In this document: positions 1,436 through 60,584 of the stretch, piece by piece
Numbering within the stretch: the stretch's first letter is position 1
Layout of the letters: every line of letters starts with the position of its first letter
Source of the DNA: Opitutia bacterium
GTDB taxonomy: Bacteria > Verrucomicrobiota > Verrucomicrobiia > Opitutales > Opitutaceae
Assembly: GCA_947472765.1 (NCBI GenBank)
Contig: CANJCM010000003.1
Location: 29,612-93,611 of the forward strand
Direction: 5' to 3'
Length of the DNA: 64,000 bases
The notes under the pieces: generated by a model
Databases searched by the model: none
Told to the model about the DNA's origin: nothing
Seen by the model: the letters and a program-made list of their open reading frames with translations, nothing else
Program-made: the position numbers and the translations under genes

Positions 1436-2728
<1,293 letters not shown>

Positions 2729-2819: not shown

Positions 2820-4082
2820 ATGGCCAAATTCAAGACGATTCGCGACCTCAAGCTGGCGGGACGCCGTGTCCTAATCCGCGTCGATTTCAATGTCCCCCAG
2901 GACAAGAAGACCGGCGCCATCACCAACACGCAGCGGATCACCGCCGCGTTGCCGACGATCAAGTACGCCCTCGATCAGGGCGCTTCCGTCGTGCTGATGT
3001 CGCACCTCGGCCGTCCGGACGGCAAGAAGGTCGCCAAGTTCTCGCTCCAGCCGGTCGCGACCGAGCTCGAGAAGCTTCTTGGCCGCAAAGTCACCTTCCT
3101 CGACGACTGCGTCGGCCCGGCGGTCGAGGCCGCGTGTGCGCCTGGCAAGTTGAAGGCTGGCGACGTCGTGCTGCTTGAGAACCTGCGCTTCCACATCGAG
3201 GAAGAGGGCAAGGTGAAGGTCGAGAATCCCGATGGGACCGAGACCAAGATCAAGGCCGATCCCGAGCAGGAAAAGGCGTTCCGCGCCTCGCTCTCGAAGC
3301 TCGGTGACGTCTACGTCAACGACGCGTTCGGCACCGCGCACCGCGGCCATTCGTCGATCGTCGGCGTCGCGCTTTCGGAGAAGGCCGCGGGTTTCCTGAT
3401 GGAGGCCGAGCTCAAGGCGTTCGCCAAAGTCATGGACAATCCGGAACGTCCGCTGCTCGCCATCCTCGGCGGCGCGAAGATCAAGGATAAGATTCCGCTG
3501 ATCAAAAACCTGATCGAGAAGGCCGACAAAATCATCATCGGCGGCGGGATGGCCTACACCTTCCACAAGCAGCTTCGCGGCATGAAGATTGGCTCCAGCC
3601 TCTTCGACGCCGAAGGCGCGACGATCGTGGGCGAACTCGAGGCCAAGGCGAAGGCGCGCGGCGTCGAGCTGATCCTCCCGATCGATTTCGTGGCGGCGGA
3701 CAAGTTCGATCCCAACGCCAACACCCAGCCGGCGACGCTCGAGAGCGGCATTCCCGACGGTTGGGAAGGCCTCGATGCCGGCCCGAAGTCGATCGAACTC
3801 TACCGCAAGGCGATCCTCGCCTCGAAGACCATCGTCTGGAACGGCCCCGCGGGCGTGTTCGAGTTCGACAAGTTCGCCGTGGCCACGAAGGCCATGGCCG
3901 ACGCGATTGCTGAAGCGACCGCCAAGGGCGCCACGACGGTGGTTGGCGGCGGTGACACCGCGACCGCGGCCAAGAAATTCAAGGTGGCCGACAAGGTCAC
4001 CCACTGTTCGACCGGCGGCGGCGCGAGCCTCGAGTTCCTCGAAGGCAAAGTGCTGCCCGGCGTCGCGTTCCTGGAGAGCTGA
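2820..4082 (+). CDS. pgk: Phosphoglycerate kinase
   Basis: Motifs [43 protein letters not shown]. Start moved to ATG 2820 ([10 protein letters not shown]). Confidence 0.96.
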
Positions 4083-4097
4083 CGCTCTCTGGGTTTT

Positions 4098-4218
4098 GAG
4101 TTTGGCGTTCGGAGTTTCGAGTTTCGTACTCCGAACGACAGCCCTGACACCCAGAACTCAGAACTCAAAACACAGAACGCAAAGAGACTCCAAACCCCAA
4201 ACTCCGAACACCAAACTC
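4098..4218. repeat. Intercistronic inverted repeat (20-nt arms) spanning the pgk-tpiA spacer
   Basis: GAGTTTGGCGTTCGGAGTTT (4098-4117) is complementary at 19 of 20 positions to AAACTCCGAACACCAAACTC (4199-4218). An inner 9-bp hairpin lies at 4107-4136. The right arm ends 2 nt before the tpiA ATG. Confidence 0.8.
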
Positions 4219-4220
4219 AT

Positions 4221-4991
4221 ATGATTTCCCGGAAGAAACTCATCGCTGGCAATTGGAAGATGAACAAGACGTCCGCCGATGCGGCGACGTTGGTGGGCGA
4301 CCTCGTGTCGGCCATCGGCAAGCAGAACGACGTCGATGTCGTCGTATGCCCTCCATTCACCTCGCTCGAGAGCGCCGGCAAGGTGCTCGAGGGTTCGACC
4401 GTGAAGCTCGGCGCGCAGAACATGCACCCCGAGGCCAGCGGCGCCTTCACCGGCGAAATCTCGGCCCCGATGCTGCGGGCGCTCTTCGCGACCTACGTCA
4501 TCCTCGGACACAGCGAACGCCGGAGTTACTTCGCGGAGACGGATGCCTTCATCAACAAGAAGGTGCACGCCGCGCTGAAGAACCAGCTTCGCCCAATCCT
4601 CTGTGTCGGCGAGACCCTCGCCGAGCGTGAGTCCGGCTCGACCTTGAAGGTCGTGCAGACCCAGACCGAGCTCGGCCTCGAAGGCGTGAGCAAGGAACAG
4701 GCGGCCAGTCTCGTCATTGCCTACGAGCCCGTCTGGGCGATCGGCACCGGCAAGGTGGCGACGACCGAGCAGGCGCAGGAAGTCCACGCCTTCATTCGCG
4801 ATTTGCTGACCAAGCTCTACACCGCGCCCGTCGCGCAGAAGGTGCGGATCCTTTACGGCGGCTCGATGAAGCCGGCGAACGCGCCGGAATTGCTCGCGCA
4901 AAAGGACATCGACGGCGGTCTCATCGGCGGCGCGAGCCTCGAGGCCCGCAGCTTTGTCGAACTGGTCAACGCCGCGATTGCGGTGAAGTAA
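4221..4991 (+). CDS. tpiA: Triosephosphate isomerase
   Basis: IAGNWKMN, ILGHSERR, AYEPVWAIGTG, ILYGGS motifs. Confidence 0.96.
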   Translation: MISRKKLIAGNWKMNKTSADAATLVGDLVSAIGKQNDVDVVVCPPFTSLESAGKVLEGSTVKLGAQNMHPEASGAFTGEISAPMLRALFATYVILGHSERRSYFAETDAFINKKVHAALKNQLRPILCVGETLAERESGSTLKVVQTQTELGLEGVSKEQAASLVIAYEPVWAIGTGKVATTEQAQEVHAFIRDLLTKLYTAPVAQKVRILYGGSMKPANAPELLAQKDIDGGLIGGASLEARSFVELVNAAIAVK

Positions 4992-5002
4992 GGACGGCGT
5001 TC

Positions 5003-5062
5003 GGGCGCGCACGAGGCGCGCCCCTACAAATGCCTTCGTAGGGGCGGGGCTCGTCCTCGCCC
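5003..5062. repeat. REP doublet (REPIN-like), GTAGGGGCG subtype
   Basis: GGGCGCGCACGAGGCGCGCCCCTAC and GTAGGGGCGGGGCTCGTCCTCGCCC lie in inverted orientation 10 nt apart. Each unit is GTAG plus an imperfect palindrome. Confidence 0.8.
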
Positions 5063-5095
5063 GAATTGCCGGCGTACGCCGAACACCCCCGCCCT

Positions 5096-7293: not shown

Positions 7294-8379
7294 TTAGTAG
7301 TGCTTCACGTAGCCGTTGCGGCGAAGCCGCTCGAGCCAGCGTTCCTGATTCACGCGCGACATTTGCTGGATGAGCATGCGCTCGATCTGGTCGCGGACTT
7401 CATTCAGCGGCTGGATGCCGGCGAACTTGCGGTCCTCCACGAAGAGGAGGAAGCAGCCTTCGGGTAGCACGAGCGGCTCGGAGGCCTCGCCCGGCTTGAG
7501 ATTGAAGGCGACGTCGCTGAATTCCGATTTGAAGTCCGAGCGGCGCATCATGCCCCAGTCGCCACCCTTGGCGCGCTTGGCATCGCGGCTGAACTCCTTC
7601 GCCAGGTCCTCGAATTTTTCGCCGGCCTTGAAGCGGGCCAGGATCTTGTTCGCCTGAATGAGCAACTGCTGGTCGTTCTCACCCTCGGGACGCGTCAGCT
7701 GAATCAGGCGCAGATGGACTTCGTCCTCCCGATAGAACCGATCCTTGTTCTCATTATAGAAGGTCTCGATCCGGACCGGGCTCACGATGCTCTCCGACTT
7801 GCGCTGCTGGCTGCGCATGTAGCTGTAAATGATGTCCTCCTCGACCTCGCGTTCGAACTCGCGCGTCGTGAGTCCCATCGAGCGCAGGTAGGCGAGGAAC
7901 TTGGAACGGTCGTTGTCGAACTGCTCCGAGAGCCGGTTCGCGATTTCGTTTTCGACGTAGCTCCGGGGAATGTGCTTCTTCTCGTCCTTCCGGAAATCTT
8001 TGATGATCAGGACGCGGTCGATGAGGTCCTGAATGACGCTGTCCTGCAGGGTCGTGAGGCGGTCATCGAGTTCCTTCTGGCTCTTGGCCTCGGCCTGAAG
8101 CTGCTGGAACAGGGGGGCGATTTCGCGGGTGACGTCGGCGACCGTGATGATTTTGTCCTCGGCAATCGCGACGATACCGTTGGCAAAGCGAAGGTTAAGC
8201 GAGTCGGACGGGTTCGGCGCCGGATTGGCGACCGGGTTGACCGGCTGGGCCGCGGGCTGCGCCGCCTGGGCCGCCGGCTGGCCGAAAGTCGGAAGAGGGG
8301 TGCCATTCTGGCCGAAAGCCACGGTGCCGAATGCGGCCGCAAGCAGCAGGGAGACGAAGTGGCGGGGACGGAACGTCAT
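7294..8379 (-). CDS. SurA/PpiD-like periplasmic chaperone with parvulin PPIase domain
   Basis: Signal peptide MTFRPRHFVSLLLAAAFGTVAFGQ. Parvulin-like C-terminal part: FSRDAKRAKGGDWGMM...FNLKPGEASEPLVLPEGCFLLFVEDRK. ATG 8379 overlaps the mfd stop (ATGA). Confidence 0.8.
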   Translation of the reverse strand: MTFRPRHFVSLLLAAAFGTVAFGQNGTPLPTFGQPAAQAAQPAAQPVNPVANPAPNPSDSLNLRFANGIVAIAEDKIITVADVTREIAPLFQQLQAEAKSQKELDDRLTTLQDSVIQDLIDRVLIIKDFRKDEKKHIPRSYVENEIANRLSEQFDNDRSKFLAYLRSMGLTTREFEREVEEDIIYSYMRSQQRKSESIVSPVRIETFYNENKDRFYREDEVHLRLIQLTRPEGENDQQLLIQANKILARFKAGEKFEDLAKEFSRDAKRAKGGDWGMMRRSDFKSEFSDVAFNLKPGEASEPLVLPEGCFLLFVEDRKFAGIQPLNEVRDQIERMLIQQMSRVNQERWLERLRRNGYVKHY

Positions 8380-11300
8380 GAAGTCGGCAGATTGTCCAAA
8401 AAGGTACAGATTTCTCGCAACCGTAGGAGGGGCTTGGGGCTGGTCAACCTTGGAAACCGGGTGCCGAGCTGCACCCAGTCGTCCCGGCGGCCGGAGTTCC
8501 GCAGGCACTTCAAACGATTGGACTCGGTCTCGACTGAAACGATCCCTTTTTGTTCCGCCCGGATTCGGACTTCCGTGATCGCGAACAGCGCCCGGACATC
8601 GTCGCCGAACTTCCCGAACCGATCGCGCAACTCAGCCTCGATCTGCTTCAACGTGGTCAGGCTGTCGGCCATCGCCAGCTTGCGGTAGAAATCGATCCGC
8701 AGCCGTGTCTCCGAAAGGTAACTCGGCGGGATCCGGGCCTGGATTTTCCGGACTTCCACGACTTCCTCGTCCTCGGCGTCCTTCAACGCCGTGTAGCCGT
8801 CGACATGGCGGCCGGTTCGTCCCGGGGTCTCCATCGCGGTACCTTTGGATTTATCGGGCAGCGCCGGGCCGGCCTCGCCCACGATAACGAAATCGAGCTT
8901 CACGCTGGCGCGGATCGCGGCGGCGGTCTTCTCGCCCTTCAGCCGGGCGACCGACTGGCGGAGGAGCTGGCAGTAGAGTTCAAAGCCGACGCCGACGATG
9001 TGACCGCTCTGCTCGGCGCCCAGGAGATTGCCGGCGCCGCGGAGTTCGAGGTCGCGCATCGCGATCCGGAAGCCCGCACCGAGCTGGTTGTGCTGTCGCA
9101 TCGCTGTCAGCCGCTGACGGGCGATCTCGAGCAGTCGCGTGTGCCGGTGGAGCAGGAGGTAGGCGTAGGCTTGGTGCTTGAACCGGCCGACCCGGCCGCG
9201 GAGCTGGTAAAGTTGGGACAACCCAAAGCGGTCGGCTCCCTCGATGATGATCGTGTTGCAGTTCGGAATATCGAGGCCGCTCTCGATGATCGTGGTGCAG
9301 ACGAGCATTTGATAACGCTTCGCCACGAAGTCCGTCATGATGTGCTCGAGGTCGGCCGGCTCCATCTGACCGTGGCCGACGCCGATCGTGAGGCCGGGCA
9401 GAAGTTCGCGCAGCCGGGCCGCGACGAGCTCAATCGTCTGAACGCGATTGTGCAGGTAGAAGACCTGTCCGCCGCGGCGGATTTCATGGTGCACCGCGTC
9501 CACGACGATCTTCTCGTCGTAGGTCTTGACGATCGTCTGGATCGGATGGCGGTTGCCCGGGGCCGTCTCGATCACGCTGAGATCGCGGGCACCGGTCAGC
9601 GCCATGTAGAGCGTGCGCGGAATCGGCGTTGCGCTCATCGAGAGCACGTCGACCGTCGCGCGCATCCGCTTGAACACTTCCTTGTGCTTCACGCCGAAGC
9701 GCTGCTCTTCGTCGATGACGACGAGCCCGAGTTCCTTGAACTGGACGTCGGCCTGGATGAGCCGGTGCGTGCCGATCAGGATGTCCACCTGGCCTTCCTT
9801 CGTGGCTTGCAGGATTTTGTTCTGTTCGGCCCGCGAGCGAAACCGGCTGACCATCTCGATCGCCACCGGGTAGCCCGCCATCCGCTCGCGAAACGTGTTG
9901 AGATGCTGCTGCGCCAGCACGGTCGTCGGCACAAGCAGCGCGACCTGCCGGCCGCCTTGCACGGCTTTAAAGGCGGCGCGGATGGCGACCTCGGTCTTGC
10001 CGAAACCGACATCGCCACACACCAGCCGATCCATTGGACGGGTCTTCTCCATGTCCTGCTTTGCCTCGCTGATGGCCCGGAGCTGATCGCGCGTTTCCGT
10101 GAACGGGAACGACGCCTCGAATTCCTTCTGCCAGGTGTTGTCCTCGGCGAACGCGTGGCCCGGCTGCGCCTCGCGGGCCGCGTGGATGCGGAGGAGTTCC
10201 GCCGCGAGATCGATCGTCGCCCGCTCGGCGGCCTGGCGCGCCTTTTCCCAGCGCTGAGTGCCGATCCGGCCGAGCTGCGGGCGGGACTTGCTGAGTCCGA
10301 CGTAGCGGCTGATCAGATGCGACTCCTGCAACGGCACGTGCAGCGTCACGTGGTCGTCGAACTCGAGCGAGATCACCTCCCGCATGCCCTGCGCGGTGTC
10401 GAGCTTGGTCAGCCCGCGGTAAAGCGCGATGCCGTGCTGCAAGTGCACCACGAAGTCGCCTTCCACCAGTTCGGAGAAATCGAGCAGTTGATCGATCTGC
10501 GCGCGTTGGGCCACGGCGCGGACATTCAACTGCGGACGCCGCTGGCGCTGGCGCCCGAAGATTTCGGTCTCGGTGACGAACACCTGACCGAGGTGGCACG
10601 GGTCTCCCGACCCGTGGATGGCCTTTGACCGACCGATCTTCACGGGTCGGGAGACCCGTGCCACGGGGGAGGGCGGACGATCGGCGGCGGTCGCGGCGGC
10701 GGTCAGCGCGGCCTGTGCGGAGTAGGTGATTCGAAAGCCCTCGTTGAGGGTGCCGCGGACCCACTTCGGCTGAATGCCCTTCAACACCGGATCCTCATCG
10801 AGAATTTCGCGGGTGCGCTGTTCTTCTCCGGCTTTCGAAACGACGAAGGCGATGTCGAACCCGGCTTTCCTCCAGCCAGCGACTTGGTGGAGGAATTCGC
10901 GGCGCGCGTCTTCCTCGACCTGCAGCCGTTCCTGCGCGACCAGGGCGTCGTCGGGATAACGGCGGTGGTGCACGAGGCTCTCGGTGTTCCACGTGACGTC
11001 ATCCTCGCAGCCGTCAAACAGCGCGGTCGCTTCGTCGAGGTCGCTGATCCCGTACGCCTCACCGCAGCGTTCGAGCAACGGAGTGAGTCCATCCGTTCCC
11101 TCCCGGGCAAAACCGCTGAACTCCTCCTCGAGCGCCGCCGGCTCGATGAACACGAGCCGGGCGGTTGGCGCGAGGTAGTCGGCGAGCCCCGTGCGCGAGG
11201 GATCGAGTTTCACCCGCGGTGAAGCGGCGAGGCTGATGCTCTCGACACTCGCGCCTGAGCGCTGGCTCACGGGATCGAATTCGCGAATCGCCTCAATCTC

Positions 11301-11879
11301 GTCGCCGAAGAAATCGAGCCGGTAGGGCGTGTTCGCCGTCACCGGGTAGATATCGATGATGCCGCCGCGAATCGCGTACTGGCTCGGCGCCTCACACACG
11401 GCCTCGGCGTCGTAGTCGAGCCGGTGGAGTTGTTCGAGCAAGCCCTGGAACGGCTGCGTCTGTCCGCGGGCCAGCGTGAGTTCCCTCGTGGCGAACTCCT
11501 CGAGCGCCGGCACGGCCTGCAACAGCGCCGCCGGCGTCGTGACCACCACCAGCGTGTCGGGTGTGGCACTGAGCCCGCGAATCGCCCGCAGCCGCGAGAG
11601 CACGGTGAGCCGATCGCTCGAGGCGGCGAAGGCCTCGCGCATGTCCCGGCTGTCCGGCATCGACTCGGGAAACACCAGCGTGCGCATCGGCCGGGCATCG
11701 CTTGCGGCCGAGTGGAAAAGCGCGATGTCCTCGGCAAGATGTTCGGCCGCGTTGAGGTCCTCGGCGACGACGAGCCAGACCGGGGCCGGCTGCGCGCGAC
11801 AAAGTTCGGCGACCACCGCGCCACGAGCGGGCGGGCAGACCCCGGTCAGCTTGTGGCGCCGAGCGGTCGGAACGGGCAT
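8376..11879 (-). CDS. mfd: Transcription-repair coupling factor Mfd
   Basis: VCGDVGFGKTEVAIRAAF (Walker A), VIDEEQRFGV (DExx), SATPIPRTL, QLRGRVGR, TRG motif region, C-terminal D7. N-terminal homology favours ATG 11879 over ORF-track 11960. Confidence 0.95.
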   Translation of the reverse strand: MPVPTARRHKLTGVCPPARGAVVAELCRAQPAPVWLVVAEDLNAAEHLAEDIALFHSAASDARPMRTLVFPESMPDSRDMREAFAASSDRLTVLSRLRAIRGLSATPDTLVVVTTPAALLQAVPALEEFATRELTLARGQTQPFQGLLEQLHRLDYDAEAVCEAPSQYAIRGGIIDIYPVTANTPYRLDFFGDEIEAIREFDPVSQRSGASVESISLAASPRVKLDPSRTGLADYLAPTARLVFIEPAALEEEFSGFAREGTDGLTPLLERCGEAYGISDLDEATALFDGCEDDVTWNTESLVHHRRYPDDALVAQERLQVEEDARREFLHQVAGWRKAGFDIAFVVSKAGEEQRTREILDEDPVLKGIQPKWVRGTLNEGFRITYSAQAALTAAATAADRPPSPVARVSRPVKIGRSKAIHGSGDPCHLGQVFVTETEIFGRQRQRRPQLNVRAVAQRAQIDQLLDFSELVEGDFVVHLQHGIALYRGLTKLDTAQGMREVISLEFDDHVTLHVPLQESHLISRYVGLSKSRPQLGRIGTQRWEKARQAAERATIDLAAELLRIHAAREAQPGHAFAEDNTWQKEFEASFPFTETRDQLRAISEAKQDMEKTRPMDRLVCGDVGFGKTEVAIRAAFKAVQGGRQVALLVPTTVLAQQHLNTFRERMAGYPVAIEMVSRFRSRAEQNKILQATKEGQVDILIGTHRLIQADVQFKELGLVVIDEEQRFGVKHKEVFKRMRATVDVLSMSATPIPRTLYMALTGARDLSVIETAPGNRHPIQTIVKTYDEKIVVDAVHHEIRRGGQVFYLHNRVQTIELVAARLRELLPGLTIGVGHGQMEPADLEHIMTDFVAKRYQMLVCTTIIESGLDIPNCNTIIIEGADRFGLSQLYQLRGRVGRFKHQAYAYLLLHRHTRLLEIARQRLTAMRQHNQLGAGFRIAMRDLELRGAGNLLGAEQSGHIVGVGFELYCQLLRQSVARLKGEKTAAAIRASVKLDFVIVGEAGPALPDKSKGTAMETPGRTGRHVDGYTALKDAEDEEVVEVRKIQARIPPSYLSETRLRIDFYRKLAMADSLTTLKQIEAELRDRFGKFGDDVRALFAITEVRIRAEQKGIVSVETESNRLKCLRNSGRRDDWVQLGTRFPRLTSPKPLLRLREICTFLDNLPTS
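10593..10664. mobile_element. Family A palindromic element, copy 2, in frame inside mfd
   Basis: 72 bp (24 codons), with arms near-identical to the intergenic copies. Translated as VARVSRPVKIGRSKAIHGSGDPCH without breaking the mfd frame. Confidence 0.8.
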
Positions 11880-11969
11880 GAAGGAAAAGGAGAAAGCGAA
11901 TTTGTCCCGAACCGCAAGGCGAGCGACGCGCGGTGCGCGTCGCCTGAGGGAGACAGGCATCAGTCATCC

Positions 11970-12040
11970 TGTCATTCTGAGCGCAGCGAAGAATCCACGC
12001 GCGGCGATCTCTTGGATTCTTCGCTGCGCTCAGAATGACA
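11970..12040. repeat. Family C palindrome (TGTCATTCTGAGCGCAGCGAAGAATCCA inverted pair)
   Basis: Perfect 28-bp inverted repeat (11970-11997 / 12013-12040) with a 15-bp spacer, just upstream of mfd. Degenerate copies at 27973 and 31504. Confidence 0.9.
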
Positions 12041-12063
12041 TCGTCAAGTGGTGGTTGGTCGAC

Positions 12064-12123
12064 GGGCGTGCACGAGGCCCGCCCGTACAAAAGGCATCGT
12101 AGGGGCGGGCCTTGTGCACGCCC
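12064..12123. repeat. REP doublet (GTAGGGGCG subtype)
   Basis: GGGCGTGCACGAGGCCCGCCCGTAC and GTAGGGGCGGGCCTTGTGCACGCCC in inverted orientation, ending 4 nt before the rnc stop. Confidence 0.75.
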
Positions 12124-12127
12124 GACT

Positions 12128-12823
12128 TCAGCCGTTCTGCAAAACGTCCAACGCCACGCGCGCCGCGGCTTCCTCCGCCGCCTTCTTGGACGGGCCGCAG
12201 CCGACCCCGAGGGCGCGATCAAGCAGGTGGACCTCGACCGAGTATTCGCGGGCGTGATCCTCGCCGGTGATTTGAACGACCTCGTAGCGGACGGCGTTGT
12301 TGCCATGCACGGGCTGAACAAGTTCCTGCAACCGGCCCTTCGGGTTGTCGTCCTTTTCCATGGGAGCGAGACGCGCCGACAGATCGCCGTATATGCCTCG
12401 GACGATCTCCCGTGAGCATTCGAAACCACCGTCGAGATAAACCGCACCGACCACGGCCTCGAACGCGTCACCGAGTGAGGAGGCGCGATTGCGGCCACCG
12501 GTCGATTCCTCGCTGGCGCCAAGTCGGAGGCATGAGTCCAGGCCGATTTCGCGGGCGAGCGCCGCTAGGATCGTCCCATTCACAAGGAGGGCCCGTCGCT
12601 TGCTGAGCAGTCCTTCTCGATCGTCGGGGAACAGCCGGTAAAGATCCTCGGCCAGTAGAATCTGTAGTACCGCGTCACCCAGAAATTCCAGCCGCTGGTT
12701 ACTTTCCCCGGCGTCGGGGTGATCCGGTAGATAGGAGAGGTGGGTGACGGCGCGTTCGAGCAGGTGACGGTCCCGAAAGACGTGACCGAGGCGGGTCTGG
12801 AACTGGTCAAGCAGATCGCTCAT
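12128..12823 (-). CDS. rnc: Ribonuclease III
   Basis: NQRLEFLGDAVL signature, SLGDAFEAVVGAVYLDGG, C-terminal dsRBD (GPSKKAAEEAAA). ATG 12823 overlaps the upstream permease stop (ATGA). ORF-track 12128..13525 is a frame fusion. Confidence 0.95.
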   Translation of the reverse strand: MSDLLDQFQTRLGHVFRDRHLLERAVTHLSYLPDHPDAGESNQRLEFLGDAVLQILLAEDLYRLFPDDREGLLSKRRALLVNGTILAALAREIGLDSCLRLGASEESTGGRNRASSLGDAFEAVVGAVYLDGGFECSREIVRGIYGDLSARLAPMEKDDNPKGRLQELVQPVHGNNAVRYEVVQITGEDHAREYSVEVHLLDRALGVGCGPSKKAAEEAAARVALDVLQNG

Positions 12824-13637: not shown

Positions 13638-13683
13638 GCGGAGCCAACCCATTCAATCACGCGATCACCTGGCGGGCGCGCAC

Positions 13684-13742
13684 GAGGCGCGCCCCTACGA
13701 AATCCGTGTAGGGGCGTGGCTCGTCCACGCCCGGATGGTAAC
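13684..13742. repeat. REP doublet (GTAGGGGCG subtype)
   Basis: GGGCGCGCACGAGGCGCGCCCCTAC (identical to the 5003 unit) plus GTAGGGGCGTGGCTCGTCCACGCCC, 9 nt apart. Confidence 0.85.
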
Positions 13743-27972: not shown

Positions 27973-28052
27973 TGTCATGGTGGGCGCAGCGAAGAATCCA
28001 GGTCGCGAGGTGCGCCGTTCAGATGGTAACTTCGCTGGCGCTCAGAATGACA
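27973..28052. repeat. Family C palindrome, degenerate copy
   Basis: TGTCATGGTGGGCGCAGCGAAGAATCCA ... GGTAACTTCGCTGGCGCTCAGAATGACA. Confidence 0.7.
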
Positions 28053-31503: not shown

Positions 31504-31583
31504 TTGTCATTCTGAGCGCCGCGAAGAATCCACTCCTCTGGGTTGAGTGATGCCATGGATCCTTCGCTCCTCTCAGGATGACA
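31504..31583. repeat. Family C palindrome, degenerate copy
   Basis: TTGTCATTCTGAGCGCCGCGAAGAATCCA ... TGGATCCTTCGCTCCTCTCAGGATGACA. Confidence 0.75.
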
Positions 31584-34065: not shown

Positions 34066-34127
34066 GGGGGCGACGGAAATGCTAGGGGTAGAGCGGAGCG
34101 CCGCAAGTGTGGGTGTTTTGCTCAACC

Positions 34128-34220
34128 GGGCGTGCTCGAGCCACGCCCCTACGATTCAGGCGGAGCCTAATGCAATTGGCGGACCGACAATCCTTGTAGG
34201 GGCGCACCTCGTGTGCGCCC
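34128..34220. repeat. REP doublet (GTAGGGGCG subtype, 43-nt spacer)
   Basis: GGGCGTGCTCGAGCCACGCCCCTAC ... GTAGGGGCGCACCTCGTGTGCGCCC. Confidence 0.75.
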
Positions 34221-59114: not shown

Positions 59115-59191
59115 GTGGCATGGGTCTCCTGACCCATGAAAGCGGAGCGGTCTCGCGTTCTGATCTTCACGGGTCGGGAGACCCGTGCCAC
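59115..59191. mobile_element. Family A palindromic MITE-like element, copy 3
   Basis: GTGGCATGGGTCTCCTGACCCATG ... CACGGGTCGGGAGACCCGTGCCAC, between the 58005-59018 gene start and the histidine kinase stop. Confidence 0.8.
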
Positions 59192-59201
59192 CAAGGCCCC
59201 T

Positions 59202-60584
59202 CTACGGCGCGGGGAGACGAACGAGGAAGCGGGCGCCGCCGCCCGGGCCGGAGGAGACACTCACGGTGCCGCCATGGGACTCCACCATGGCCTTTACGAG
59301 ACTCAGCCCGAGGCCGAGTCCGCGTTGGGAACGGCTGGCGTCGCCGCGATAGAGCCGGCGGAAGATGGCGTCGCGTTCGTGCTCCGGCACGCCGGGACCG
59401 TTGTCGGAGACGACGATGGTCGCGGCGCCGGTCTCGAGCCGCGTCGCAATCGTCACGCGCCCGCCGGCGGGCGTGTACTTCAGTGCGTTGTCGAGGAGGT
59501 TGTTGACCGCCTGGCCGAGCCGGATCGAATCGGCCTCCCATTCCACCGGACCGGGTTGATCGACGATGACCTGGATCCGGCGCTCCTCCGCGACCTCGCG
59601 ATAAAGGTCCACGGCGCGATCAACGAGGGTCCGCAGGTCAACGCGGTCGCGGTTGAGTTTGAGCGCCCCGGCCTCGGCCGCCGAGACATCGAGCAGCGTC
59701 TCCAGCAGGTGCAGCAGGCGATCGGACTCGTTGACGCAATCCGCGAGGGCGCCGCGGACCTCGGCCGGATCACCGGTGTCGTGGAGCGCGAGTTCGGCCG
59801 TGCCGCGGAGACGCGTGAGCGGCGTGCGGAGGTCGTGGGCGATGTTGTCGAGCGTCTCGCGGAGTACGCGCACGTGGGCGGCGTTCTTGTCGAGGAGGGT
59901 GTTGAGCTGCCGGGCGAGAGTGGCGATCTCGTCGCGGCGTTCCGAGGGCGGCACGCGCGCCTCGAGCTCGCCGGTTTCCAGGATGCGGCGGACGGTGTCG
60001 GCGAGCTGGCGCAGCGGATGGGTGGCCCGCCACGCGAGGAGCAGGCCGATGCCGGCCGAAAGCACGAGGGCGCCGGCGCCGACCACGACGAAGGCGCGAC
60101 GCAGCGGAGCGAGCAGTGCGGAGCGGCTCTCGGTCAGGCGACCCACCTGAAGGACGCGTCCGTCGGTGAGCCCCAGCTGGGCGATCGTGTAGTCGCGAAT
60201 GTCATTCTGCGGGAAACGCACGACTTCGCGCTTCATCGCGTACCCGGGGATCGGAAGCTGCCGGACCTCGGTCTCGATCCAGTCCTGCGGATAAACAAGG
60301 AATCCCGCGGTGCCATCGGGATTGATCAGCCGCACGAAGAACGAGTGGGCGTCCGGTGAAGTGTCGTTTTCCAGGCGGGCGCGAAGCAGTGCCGGCCCGC
60401 CGAATTCATAACCGTTGGCGAGGGCCTCCGCGCGTCTTTCGATCGCGGCCTGGTCGCGCTGCTCGAGGGCGTTGCCGAGCAGGTAGTACAACTCGCCGAA
60501 CAACGCCGCCGCGCCGAGCGCGAACACCAGCGCGTAGGGTACGGCGAGCCGAAGCGCGAGGGACTGTCGCAACCGATCAAACAT
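59202..60584 (-). CDS. Sensor histidine kinase (two TM segments, HAMP, HisKA, HATPase_c)
   Basis: H-box LDNIAHDLRTPLT, N-box NLLDNALKYTP, G-boxes DNGPGVP and GLGLGLSLV. Confidence 0.92.
   Translation of the reverse strand: MFDRLRQSLALRLAVPYALVFALGAAALFGELYYLLGNALEQRDQAAIERRAEALANGYEFGGPALLRARLENDTSPDAHSFFVRLINPDGTAGFLVYPQDWIETEVRQLPIPGYAMKREVVRFPQNDIRDYTIAQLGLTDGRVLQVGRLTESRSALLAPLRRAFVVVGAGALVLSAGIGLLLAWRATHPLRQLADTVRRILETGELEARVPPSERRDEIATLARQLNTLLDKNAAHVRVLRETLDNIAHDLRTPLTRLRGTAELALHDTGDPAEVRGALADCVNESDRLLHLLETLLDVSAAEAGALKLNRDRVDLRTLVDRAVDLYREVAEERRIQVIVDQPGPVEWEADSIRLGQAVNNLLDNALKYTPAGGRVTIATRLETGAATIVVSDNGPGVPEHERDAIFRRLYRGDASRSQRGLGLGLSLVKAMVESHGGTVSVSSGPGGGARFLVRLPAP

Follow-up and report, generated by a model that had tools for sequence, protein, structure and literature searches.

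An in-frame REP doublet in the mfd gene of an Opitutia bacterium, and REP elements in the same loop of related Mfd proteins

How does a short mobile palindrome come to be translated within a conserved repair gene, and does it serve any purpose there? The question is raised by a stretch of 64,000 nucleotides from an Opitutia bacterium of the Opitutaceae (contig CANJCM010000003.1), called the window below, in which a 72-bp palindromic repeat lies inside mfd, the gene for the transcription-repair coupling factor. The explanation that we favor, with a probability of roughly 0.8, is that the repeat is a doublet of repetitive extragenic palindromic (REP) units, or REPIN, that was mobilised by a REP-associated tyrosine transposase (RAYT), landed once in the mfd gene of a common ancestor and persists as a weakly constrained passenger in a loop of the protein. 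In-frame REP insertion of this kind is already known in the Opitutus group (PMC3733652). What is new is that several REP families have colonised this one Mfd loop, with nesting of doublets, and most of the interest lies in this pattern of a possible hotspot and of turnover rather than in the single insertion.

The doublet and the loop that carries it

The mfd-borne doublet occupies positions 10593-10664 of the window, on the minus strand. It is exactly 72 bp long, with two inverted 24-bp arms that are complementary at 24 of 24 positions and a 24-nt spacer, and it is translated as 24 codons to give the peptide VARVSRPVKIGRSKAIHGSGDPCH, residues 433-456 of the Mfd open reading frame (ORF), with a net charge of about +4. 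On the coding strand the first REP unit (10641-10664) has a GTGG head, an 8-bp stem CACGGGTC/GACCCGTG and a TCCC loop, and encodes VARVSRPV. The spacer (10617-10640) encodes KIGRSKAI, and the second, inverted unit (10593-10616) encodes HGSGDPCH. Each 24-nt arm (GTGG + CACGGGTC + TCCC + GACCCGTG) is a small stem-loop of its own, and the two arms are inverted with their heads outward. As RNA the mfd copy is predicted to form a hairpin of -67.7 kcal/mol (z = -9.6), the value for the 72-mer being -62.9 kcal/mol. No known RNA family was found in an Rfam scan of 10300-12300 with permissive E-values; matches to miRNA precursors and to VA RNA were rejected as generic hairpins that reach at most 34 bits against gathering scores of 62-114. 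The mfd DNA, insert included, is identical in two other metagenome assemblies (0 differences in 3585 nt), and thus the insert is not an assembly artefact.

The arm sequence is the 24-mer GTGGCACGGGTCTCCCGACCCGTG, which has five matches in the window when both strands are searched with up to 3 mismatches, against 0.00 expected from 100 dinucleotide shuffles. These are at 1436-1459(+), 10593-10616(+), 10641-10664(-), 59168-59191(-) and, with 3 mismatches, 59115-59138(+), and they pair into three head-out inverted doublets of what we call family A, at 1436-1509, 10593-10664 and 59115-59191. The initial annotation had reported the same three copies, two intergenic and one in the mfd ORF, and had given the length, frame and peptide of the latter; all of this was recovered, and the resemblance of the copies is far beyond chance. 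Copy 1 (1436-1509) has a 27-nt spacer and a 1-nt deletion in its right arm, and begins 13 nt past the stop of a plus-strand gene at 5-1423. Copy 3 (59115-59191) is a heterodimer with a 29-nt spacer, whose left arm is a CAT...ATG variant that preserves the stem within the arm; it sits 11 nt past the stop of a minus-strand gene at 59202-60584. The genes preceding both intergenic copies have a coding-like GC content at third codon positions (GC3).

The host ORF (8376-11960, minus strand, 1194 aa) is the only long coding-like ORF at the insert. Its product is 78-92% identical to 119 Opitutaceae transcription-repair coupling factors, matches E. coli Mfd in PDB with E = 4e-14 over the D3-RID segment, and contains the Pfam domains in canonical order: UvrB_inter (161-245), RID (499-554), DEAD (623-784), Helicase_C (823-927) and TRCF (1072-1152). 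Mfd is non-essential in model bacteria, and the word "essential" in the initial annotation was therefore misplaced. The insert lies outside every Pfam match, between UvrB_inter and RID, where it occupies the C-terminal part of a hypervariable loop of domain D3 (10587-10721, minus strand, ORF residues about 414-458). This loop extends from NEGFRIT to VFVTETE, its flanking conserved motifs being NEGFRIT and VFVTETEIFGRQRQRR. Mfd D3 has been described as non-conserved, lineage-specific and of unknown function (PMC7864632).

Comparison with E. coli Mfd (PDB 2EYQ, 6X26; Deaconescu 2006, Kang 2021) maps the insertion to the last strand-loop-strand of D3. The E. coli EHGF (~431-434) corresponds to NEGF here and LALICESDLLGE to VFVTETEIFGR. 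In our reading of the alignment, with NEGF/EHGF and TETEIFG/CESDLLG as anchors, E. coli has EHGF-VDTVRN-LALICESD at this place, a turn of 6 residues, versus about 15-23 in most Opitutaceae, which is the basal state, and 49 here. Among 120 Opitutaceae orthologues the loop has 15-68 aa, counting the residues that follow NEGFRI/V as far as the GLV strand. A HMMER pairing of AIHGSGDPCH of the insert with AEHGFVDTVR of E. coli was rejected as spurious, the real anchor NEGF-EHGF lying upstream. By this alignment the insertion falls at the end of D3, shortly before the linker to the domain that interacts with RNA polymerase (RNAP). AlphaFold2 was run on the full-length protein with 52 close homologues, and only the local D1-D3 result was used; it predicts that the insert lies in a disordered surface loop, with residues 420-454 modeled as coil without secondary structure (pLDDT <50) between two D3 strands (409-412 and 458-463). 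The short canonical loop near the RNAP-domain linker, the surface position and the very stable mRNA hairpin had all been proposed in the initial annotation, and all three agree with what was found here.

Origin and age of the insert

We identify the element as a REPIN on the basis of its self-folding, GTGG-headed arms joined in an inverted pair, the lack of target-site duplications (no direct repeats were found at the flanks of the three window copies) and the presence of a RAYT next to an identical doublet in a relative. [quoted passage not shown] The RAYT, of 210 aa, is encoded at 3953-4585, minus strand, of locus L067, from an Opitutaceae metagenome-assembled genome (MAG). It contains the HVH and Y motifs and scores 82.3 bits against NF047646 (cutoff 80) and 1.7e-8 against PF01797. 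The identical doublet precedes its ATG by 9 nt, and its 3' side has a REP end, CCGTGCCAC.

Family A is widespread among relatives of the source organism. A scan of GTDB species genomes located the exact 24-mer in more than 101 stretches, nearly all of them from MAGs of Opitutaceae or other Verrucomicrobiota, and single MAGs such as JACRKC01 and CAMDOD01 contain dozens of copies. By blastn with the window, none of the at least 101 listed stretches belongs to the source organism itself. A census of 105 sources (these GTDB stretches with the exact 24-mer, plus the window) yielded 187 arm matches, which form 68 head-out doublets and leave 51 arms unpaired; window copy 1 falls outside the 68 due to the deletion in its right arm. 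Doublet spacers cluster at lengths of 8-11 nt and 20-25 nt. Thirteen of the 68 doublets, window copy 3 among them, have the double change C7T + G22A in one arm, which preserves the stem within that arm. Variants shared between partner arms numbered 4 against 93 unshared, a count that is biased because the loci were picked for having one exact arm, and that was not used to judge selection on the long hairpin. The exact 24-mer was seen as well in contigs binned as Planctomycetota (L031 and L040 from Phycisphaerales MAGs, L050 from an Isosphaera MAG), which could be due to mis-binning or to true sharing of REP families across the phyla of the Planctomycetota-Verrucomicrobiota-Chlamydiota group.

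The 24 codons have homologous counterparts only in the closest clade, made up of protein clusters P0001-P0003 (P0002 is 92% and P0003 87% identical). The insert spacers are homologous across this clade, both as peptides (KIGRSKAI, KSGRSKAL, KTGRSKTA) and as DNA (AAGATCGGTCGGTCAAAGGCCATC here, AAAACCGGTCGGTCAAAGACAGCC in L103 and AAGTCCGGCCGGTCAAAAGCATTG in L102), and the homology of codons and spacers in all three clusters points to one insertion before the lineages split. The insert is fixed: each of the 12 full-length sequences in these three clusters (90% identity) has it. Alignment with the remaining ~110 Opitutaceae Mfd proteins revealed unrelated or much shorter sequence at the site, as had been anticipated, and one other cluster, P0040, holds an independent copy that is discussed below. 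The insert differs from that of L102 at 17 of 72 nt (24%), versus about 14.5% for the whole of mfd, and the hairpin energy falls from -62.9 here to -54.4 in L103 and -26.6 kcal/mol in L102. Divergence faster than that of the gene, together with decay of the hairpin in one lineage, is the pattern of a passenger. Judged from these sequences, the insert fits a tolerated, weakly constrained passenger, and exaptation is unsupported; of the two outcomes offered in the initial annotation, "tolerated or exapted", it is the first that stands.

A plausible course of events can be proposed. The doublet would have been moved as single-stranded DNA by a RAYT, an enzyme of the HUH/Y1 type, and then inserted into mfd in the common ancestor of the source organism and two sister lineages. 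It would have survived because its length is a multiple of three, because no stop codon arises from the GC-rich arms in the frames in use, and because it hit a disordered, length-variable loop at the end of D3, the one part of Mfd that may tolerate almost any sequence. The protein would thereby have gained 24 residues, unstructured and for the most part basic, and the mRNA and DNA a hairpin of great stability. This hairpin could have side effects, namely an mRNA hairpin that ribosomes must melt, cleavage by RNase III, and a DNA palindrome prone to deletion. Recurrence of such events at this place likely stems from the permissiveness of the loop, possibly together with insertion of REPs into or beside existing REP hairpins. 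We infer the single-strand insertion by a RAYT, its neutrality and the reason for recurrence, the first of these from REP/RAYT systems and from IS200/IS605-type HUH transposases.

Several observations weigh against a neutral REPIN passenger. Both arms in this copy are perfect and match the consensus of the family, despite an insertion older than ~15% divergence of mfd DNA. Compared with L103, the arms have 4 differences in 48 positions and the spacer 6 in 24, so that the arms are better kept, and the change A6>C in L103 is matched in the partner arm. The insert has been lost in 0 of 12 sequences. Instead of strict neutrality, the perfect arms could be a sign of selection to keep the hairpin or of gene conversion; the sequences are too few to tell a constrained insert from a passenger, and the three observations on the arms lean slightly toward constraint or conversion. 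The neighbor-joining tree behind the calls of independent events is shallow and star-like. The global AlphaFold2 model is poor (mean pLDDT 54, pTM 0.41), with D1-D3 reasonable. Finally, tblastn searches of the 64-kb window with the L067 RAYT and with an approximate E. coli RAYT query gave no match, and any activity of the family in the source organism would be putative, the linkage to a RAYT being known from a relative only.

The well-kept arms, the matched change in L103 and the fixation of the insert also argue for co-option, in which selection would maintain the insert either because the basic loop aids Mfd in its contacts with DNA, RNAP or UvrA, or because the hairpin regulates mfd, whether by serving RNase III as a target or by pausing translation or transcription. 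Also on the side of co-option are the positive charge of the peptide, the conserved synteny of mfd with rnc, the gene directly upstream, and the REP doublets that are found in the rnc-mfd spacer as well. We nevertheless consider co-option unlikely. In L102, a sister lineage, little is left of the hairpin, divergence of the insert outpaces that of the gene, most orthologues do without the insert and some have loops of only 15-18 aa. Moreover, other lineages have unrelated REP families encoding unrelated peptides in the same place, family A is translated within other, unrelated proteins and in further frames, and D3 is a domain without known function.

REP elements in the same loop and in other genes

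The DNA of 85 further mfd loci was surveyed for the content of the loop. At least four other REP families are found in the Mfd loop of other Opitutaceae, and the loop is thus a recurrent landing site. Family D (arm GTAGGGCGGGGTCTCCCGACCCCGCC) is present in L105, L108/L109, L114 and L115, where it is read as CRAGSPDPA...RRGRETPPY. Family C (arm GTGGGCGGGGTGCCCTCACCCCGC) is present in L110, L119, L126, L133 and L143 and is read as WAGCPHPA...RGEGTPP, and family E (arm GTAGGAGCCTGCTCGCAGGCGAT), with the peptide RSLLAGDS...ASKLAP, in L123 and L171/L172. Family B, decayed and C-like, was seen in L185. The four families have GTAG or GTGG heads, and each is also present outside mfd in other loci. Perfect inverted repeats of at least 12 bp were found in 8 of 81 loops (8.9 kb), versus 10 in the 254 kb of the remaining ORF extents, several of the latter lying at the 5' edge of the ORF and really belonging to the rnc-mfd spacer. 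By peptide motifs, 26 of the 120 orthologues have a recognisable REP family in the loop. Other loops look like decayed or partly deleted remnants, to judge from sequences such as SCRTESPY in P0034 beside SCRAGSPDP...RETPPY of family D.

The doublets are also found nested within one another. At three loci a short family-A doublet (56-58 nt) lies within the loop of a family-E doublet (L075, 1935-2047; L087, 7357-7475; L091, 2095-2212), and in about ten more a family-E arm directly adjoins a family-A doublet. These composites are either a composite mobile unit or the product of repeated REPIN insertion into REPIN loops. L126 and L122 have an extra insertion within the family-C copy of the Mfd loop. 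The rnc-mfd spacer of L123 contains a REPtron (806-1396), where inverted family-E arms at 806-828 and 1374-1396 enclose a RAYT-like ORF (1056-1373) that has HVH and YLNPY motifs and may have lost part of its N terminus; the loop of the adjacent mfd has a family-E doublet.

Family A itself has reached the loop a second time. The Mfd of P0040 (80% identical; genome JACRKC01, which has many copies of the family) has a 57-nt family-A doublet with a 9-nt spacer in the loop, ending as far from the downstream GLVVV strand as the insert described above, with a different upstream junction and spacer. Its place among short-loop neighbors in the tree and its different upstream junction indicate an independent insertion.

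It might be argued that the loop was hit only once, in the distant past, and that the other "families" are diverged or gene-converted descendants of that one insert. Families A and D do share the core GGGTCTCCCGACCC, downstream junctions fall within 1-4 codons of the conserved G-L-V-V-V strand, and the tree is poorly resolved. However, the arms of families C and E are unrelated, and several of the loop palindromes are perfect or nearly so, such as the 28-bp perfect arms in L105, which argues for recent arrival. Many interleaved lineages have loops of 15-23 aa without any palindrome, and the P0040 doublet differs in both spacer and upstream junction. We therefore regard a single ancient hit as improbable. 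A classical MITE would be an insertion sequence shortened by deletion, with target-site duplications around it and with terminal inverted repeats on which a DDE transposase acts. Such an element would also be short, palindromic, multicopy and non-coding by itself, but a MITE is very improbable here given that the three window copies show no direct repeats on either side, each arm folds on its own as a REP unit whose head is of the GTAG type, single arms are common (the 51 unpaired among 187 arm matches), the only transposase adjoining an exact copy is a RAYT and not a DDE enzyme, and the 1.2 Mb of loci covered revealed no parent insertion sequence that has a DDE transposase and whose terminal inverted repeats match.

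The REPIN passenger that we prefer can be extended in a more speculative direction. The D3 loop and the rnc-mfd spacer may together be a true REPIN hotspot, at which at least five families landed independently within a few codons by homing to REP hairpins; this is possible, although we hold it to be doubtful. If it were true, the loop would be a long-lived "nursery" where selfish palindromes turn over and keep rewriting part of a conserved protein. In a bolder version still, the hairpin in mfd might be autoregulatory through RNAP pausing or RNase III cleavage, sensed by the neighboring rnc and mfd.

Read-through of family A extends beyond mfd. About 8% of the sampled family-A copies are in frame within genes, where copies were retained only if the composition was coding-like on both sides. 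The hosts include YjeF/Nnr (L020, L046), cofactor-independent phosphoglycerate mutase (iPGM, L037), a Ser/Thr kinase (L083), a DUF3516 helicase (L035) and three TIR-TPR proteins (L003, L033, L045); Pfam matches were obtained with a representative from each type of host (L003, L020, L037, L083, L035). In some cases homologues in separate genomes share the position of the in-frame copy. Several frames of the arms are used, which yields VARVSRPV, GTGLPTR, HGSGDPCH, TGRETRAT or RVGRPVP, and host-gene peptides such as VARVSRPV..TGRETRATP, GTGLPTR.. and GMGLPT..RVGRPVP. A screen by GC3 placed 23 doublets in "coding-like" ORFs, most of which were rejected as stop-to-stop over-extensions or shadow frames. 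For annotation, VARVSRPV, GTGLPTR, GSGDPCH and TGRETRAT in proteins of Verrucomicrobiota are to be taken as REP-derived segments and not as conserved motifs.

Known systems and neighboring repeats

Classical REPINs, the subject of work on REPIN-RAYT systems by Bertels and Rainey in 2011 and by Nunvar et al. in 2010, are reportedly extragenic. Family A resembles those systems in its inverted REP doublets with long hairpins, in a RAYT flanked by the same REPs (L067) and in the lack of target-site duplications, and two of its three copies in the window are likewise extragenic and near the 3' ends of genes. It differs in the fraction of sampled copies that are in frame within genes and in a linkage to a RAYT that comes from a related genome only.

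The closest precedent is Opitutus terrae PB90-1, which has ~70 intragenic GTAG REPs, among others in both uvrA genes and in those for DNA ligase, recD, dnaE2 and helicases (Di Nocera, De Gregorio and Rocco 2013, BMC Genomics 14:522; PMC3733652). More than half of these are dimers that encode 20-30 aa, many of the hosts are replication or repair genes, and most members of one of the REP families in that genome have a GTGG head (PMC3733652, which catalogues GTAG and CGTC REPs). The two cases have in common the bacterial family, short self-complementary units with GTAG or GTGG heads, and read-through in known genes, and the O. terrae peptides VARASRP, GTGVPPV, WHGRPAR and HGRDARAT resemble VARVSRPV, GTGLPTR and TGRETRAT here. 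The organism is a different one, however, and the stem sequence is different though related. Mfd is not among the REP-bearing genes of O. terrae ("mfd" and "transcription-repair" are absent from the text and supplements of PMC3733652), and that study reports neither the colonisation of one loop by several families across species nor the nesting of doublets. Among the open-access papers and bioRxiv preprints searched, we found no account of multi-family colonisation of the Mfd loop, of nesting, or of a RAYT beside mfd.

The palindromic elements of Rickettsia are a behavioral analogy only. As summarised in PMC10969869, Ogata et al. (2000, Science 290:347) described them as selfish palindromes in frame within many unrelated genes, compatible with fold and function and usually situated in surface loops. 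Those genomes are of alphaproteobacterial endosymbionts, RPE-1 is about 100-150 bp long and unrelated in sequence, and the CGTC-type elements (RPE-4 and RPE-6 have a CGTC head) have no link to a RAYT (PMC3733652), in contrast to the GTAG/GTGG head found here.

With the present case, Mfd joins uvrA, ligase, recD and dnaE2 among the repair genes that contain translated REPs in Opitutus and its relatives. The life course of the insert can be followed from a single gain through fixation with the frame kept to slow decay, while the loop was re-colonised by other families in sister lineages. These loops thus form a natural series for the study of protein length variation made by palindromes, of REPIN targeting to hairpins and of the effects of stable intragenic hairpins on expression.

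The start of mfd is probably at M28 of the ORF (window 11879, MPVPTARRHKLTG), since the orthologues begin at the consensus MPVxTxxRHKLTG; from this start the gene would extend over 8376-11879 on the minus strand, and the listed ORF would be 27 codons too long. No relative has a sequence matching the 27-codon extension MPVSLRRRAPRVARLAVRDKFAFSFSF (11879-11960), which is unlikely to be translated. Some 90 nt upstream of M28, the rnc-mfd spacer contains a perfect 28-bp inverted doublet of another sequence, TGTCATTCTGAGCGCAGCGAAGAATCCA, with a 15-nt spacer (11970-12040). The same family is found at 31505-31583 and 27973-28000 of the window, in L061, and at the equivalent rnc-mfd position of L102 (949-1096). 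A further family, GTAGGGGCGGGCCTTGTGCACGCCCG, is present at 12063-12124, 5002-5063, 13673-13733 and 34127-34152, as well as in L068, L096, L103 and L038; it forms head-to-head dimers with the GTAG heads inward, one of which begins 4 nt past the stop of rnc. Together with GTGGCACGGGTCTCCCGACCCGTG, these bring the number of REP families in the window to at least three. GAGTTTGGCGTTCGGAGTTT-like units at 4088-4219 make up a cluster of imperfect repeats, both inverted and direct, which are unrelated to the REP families.

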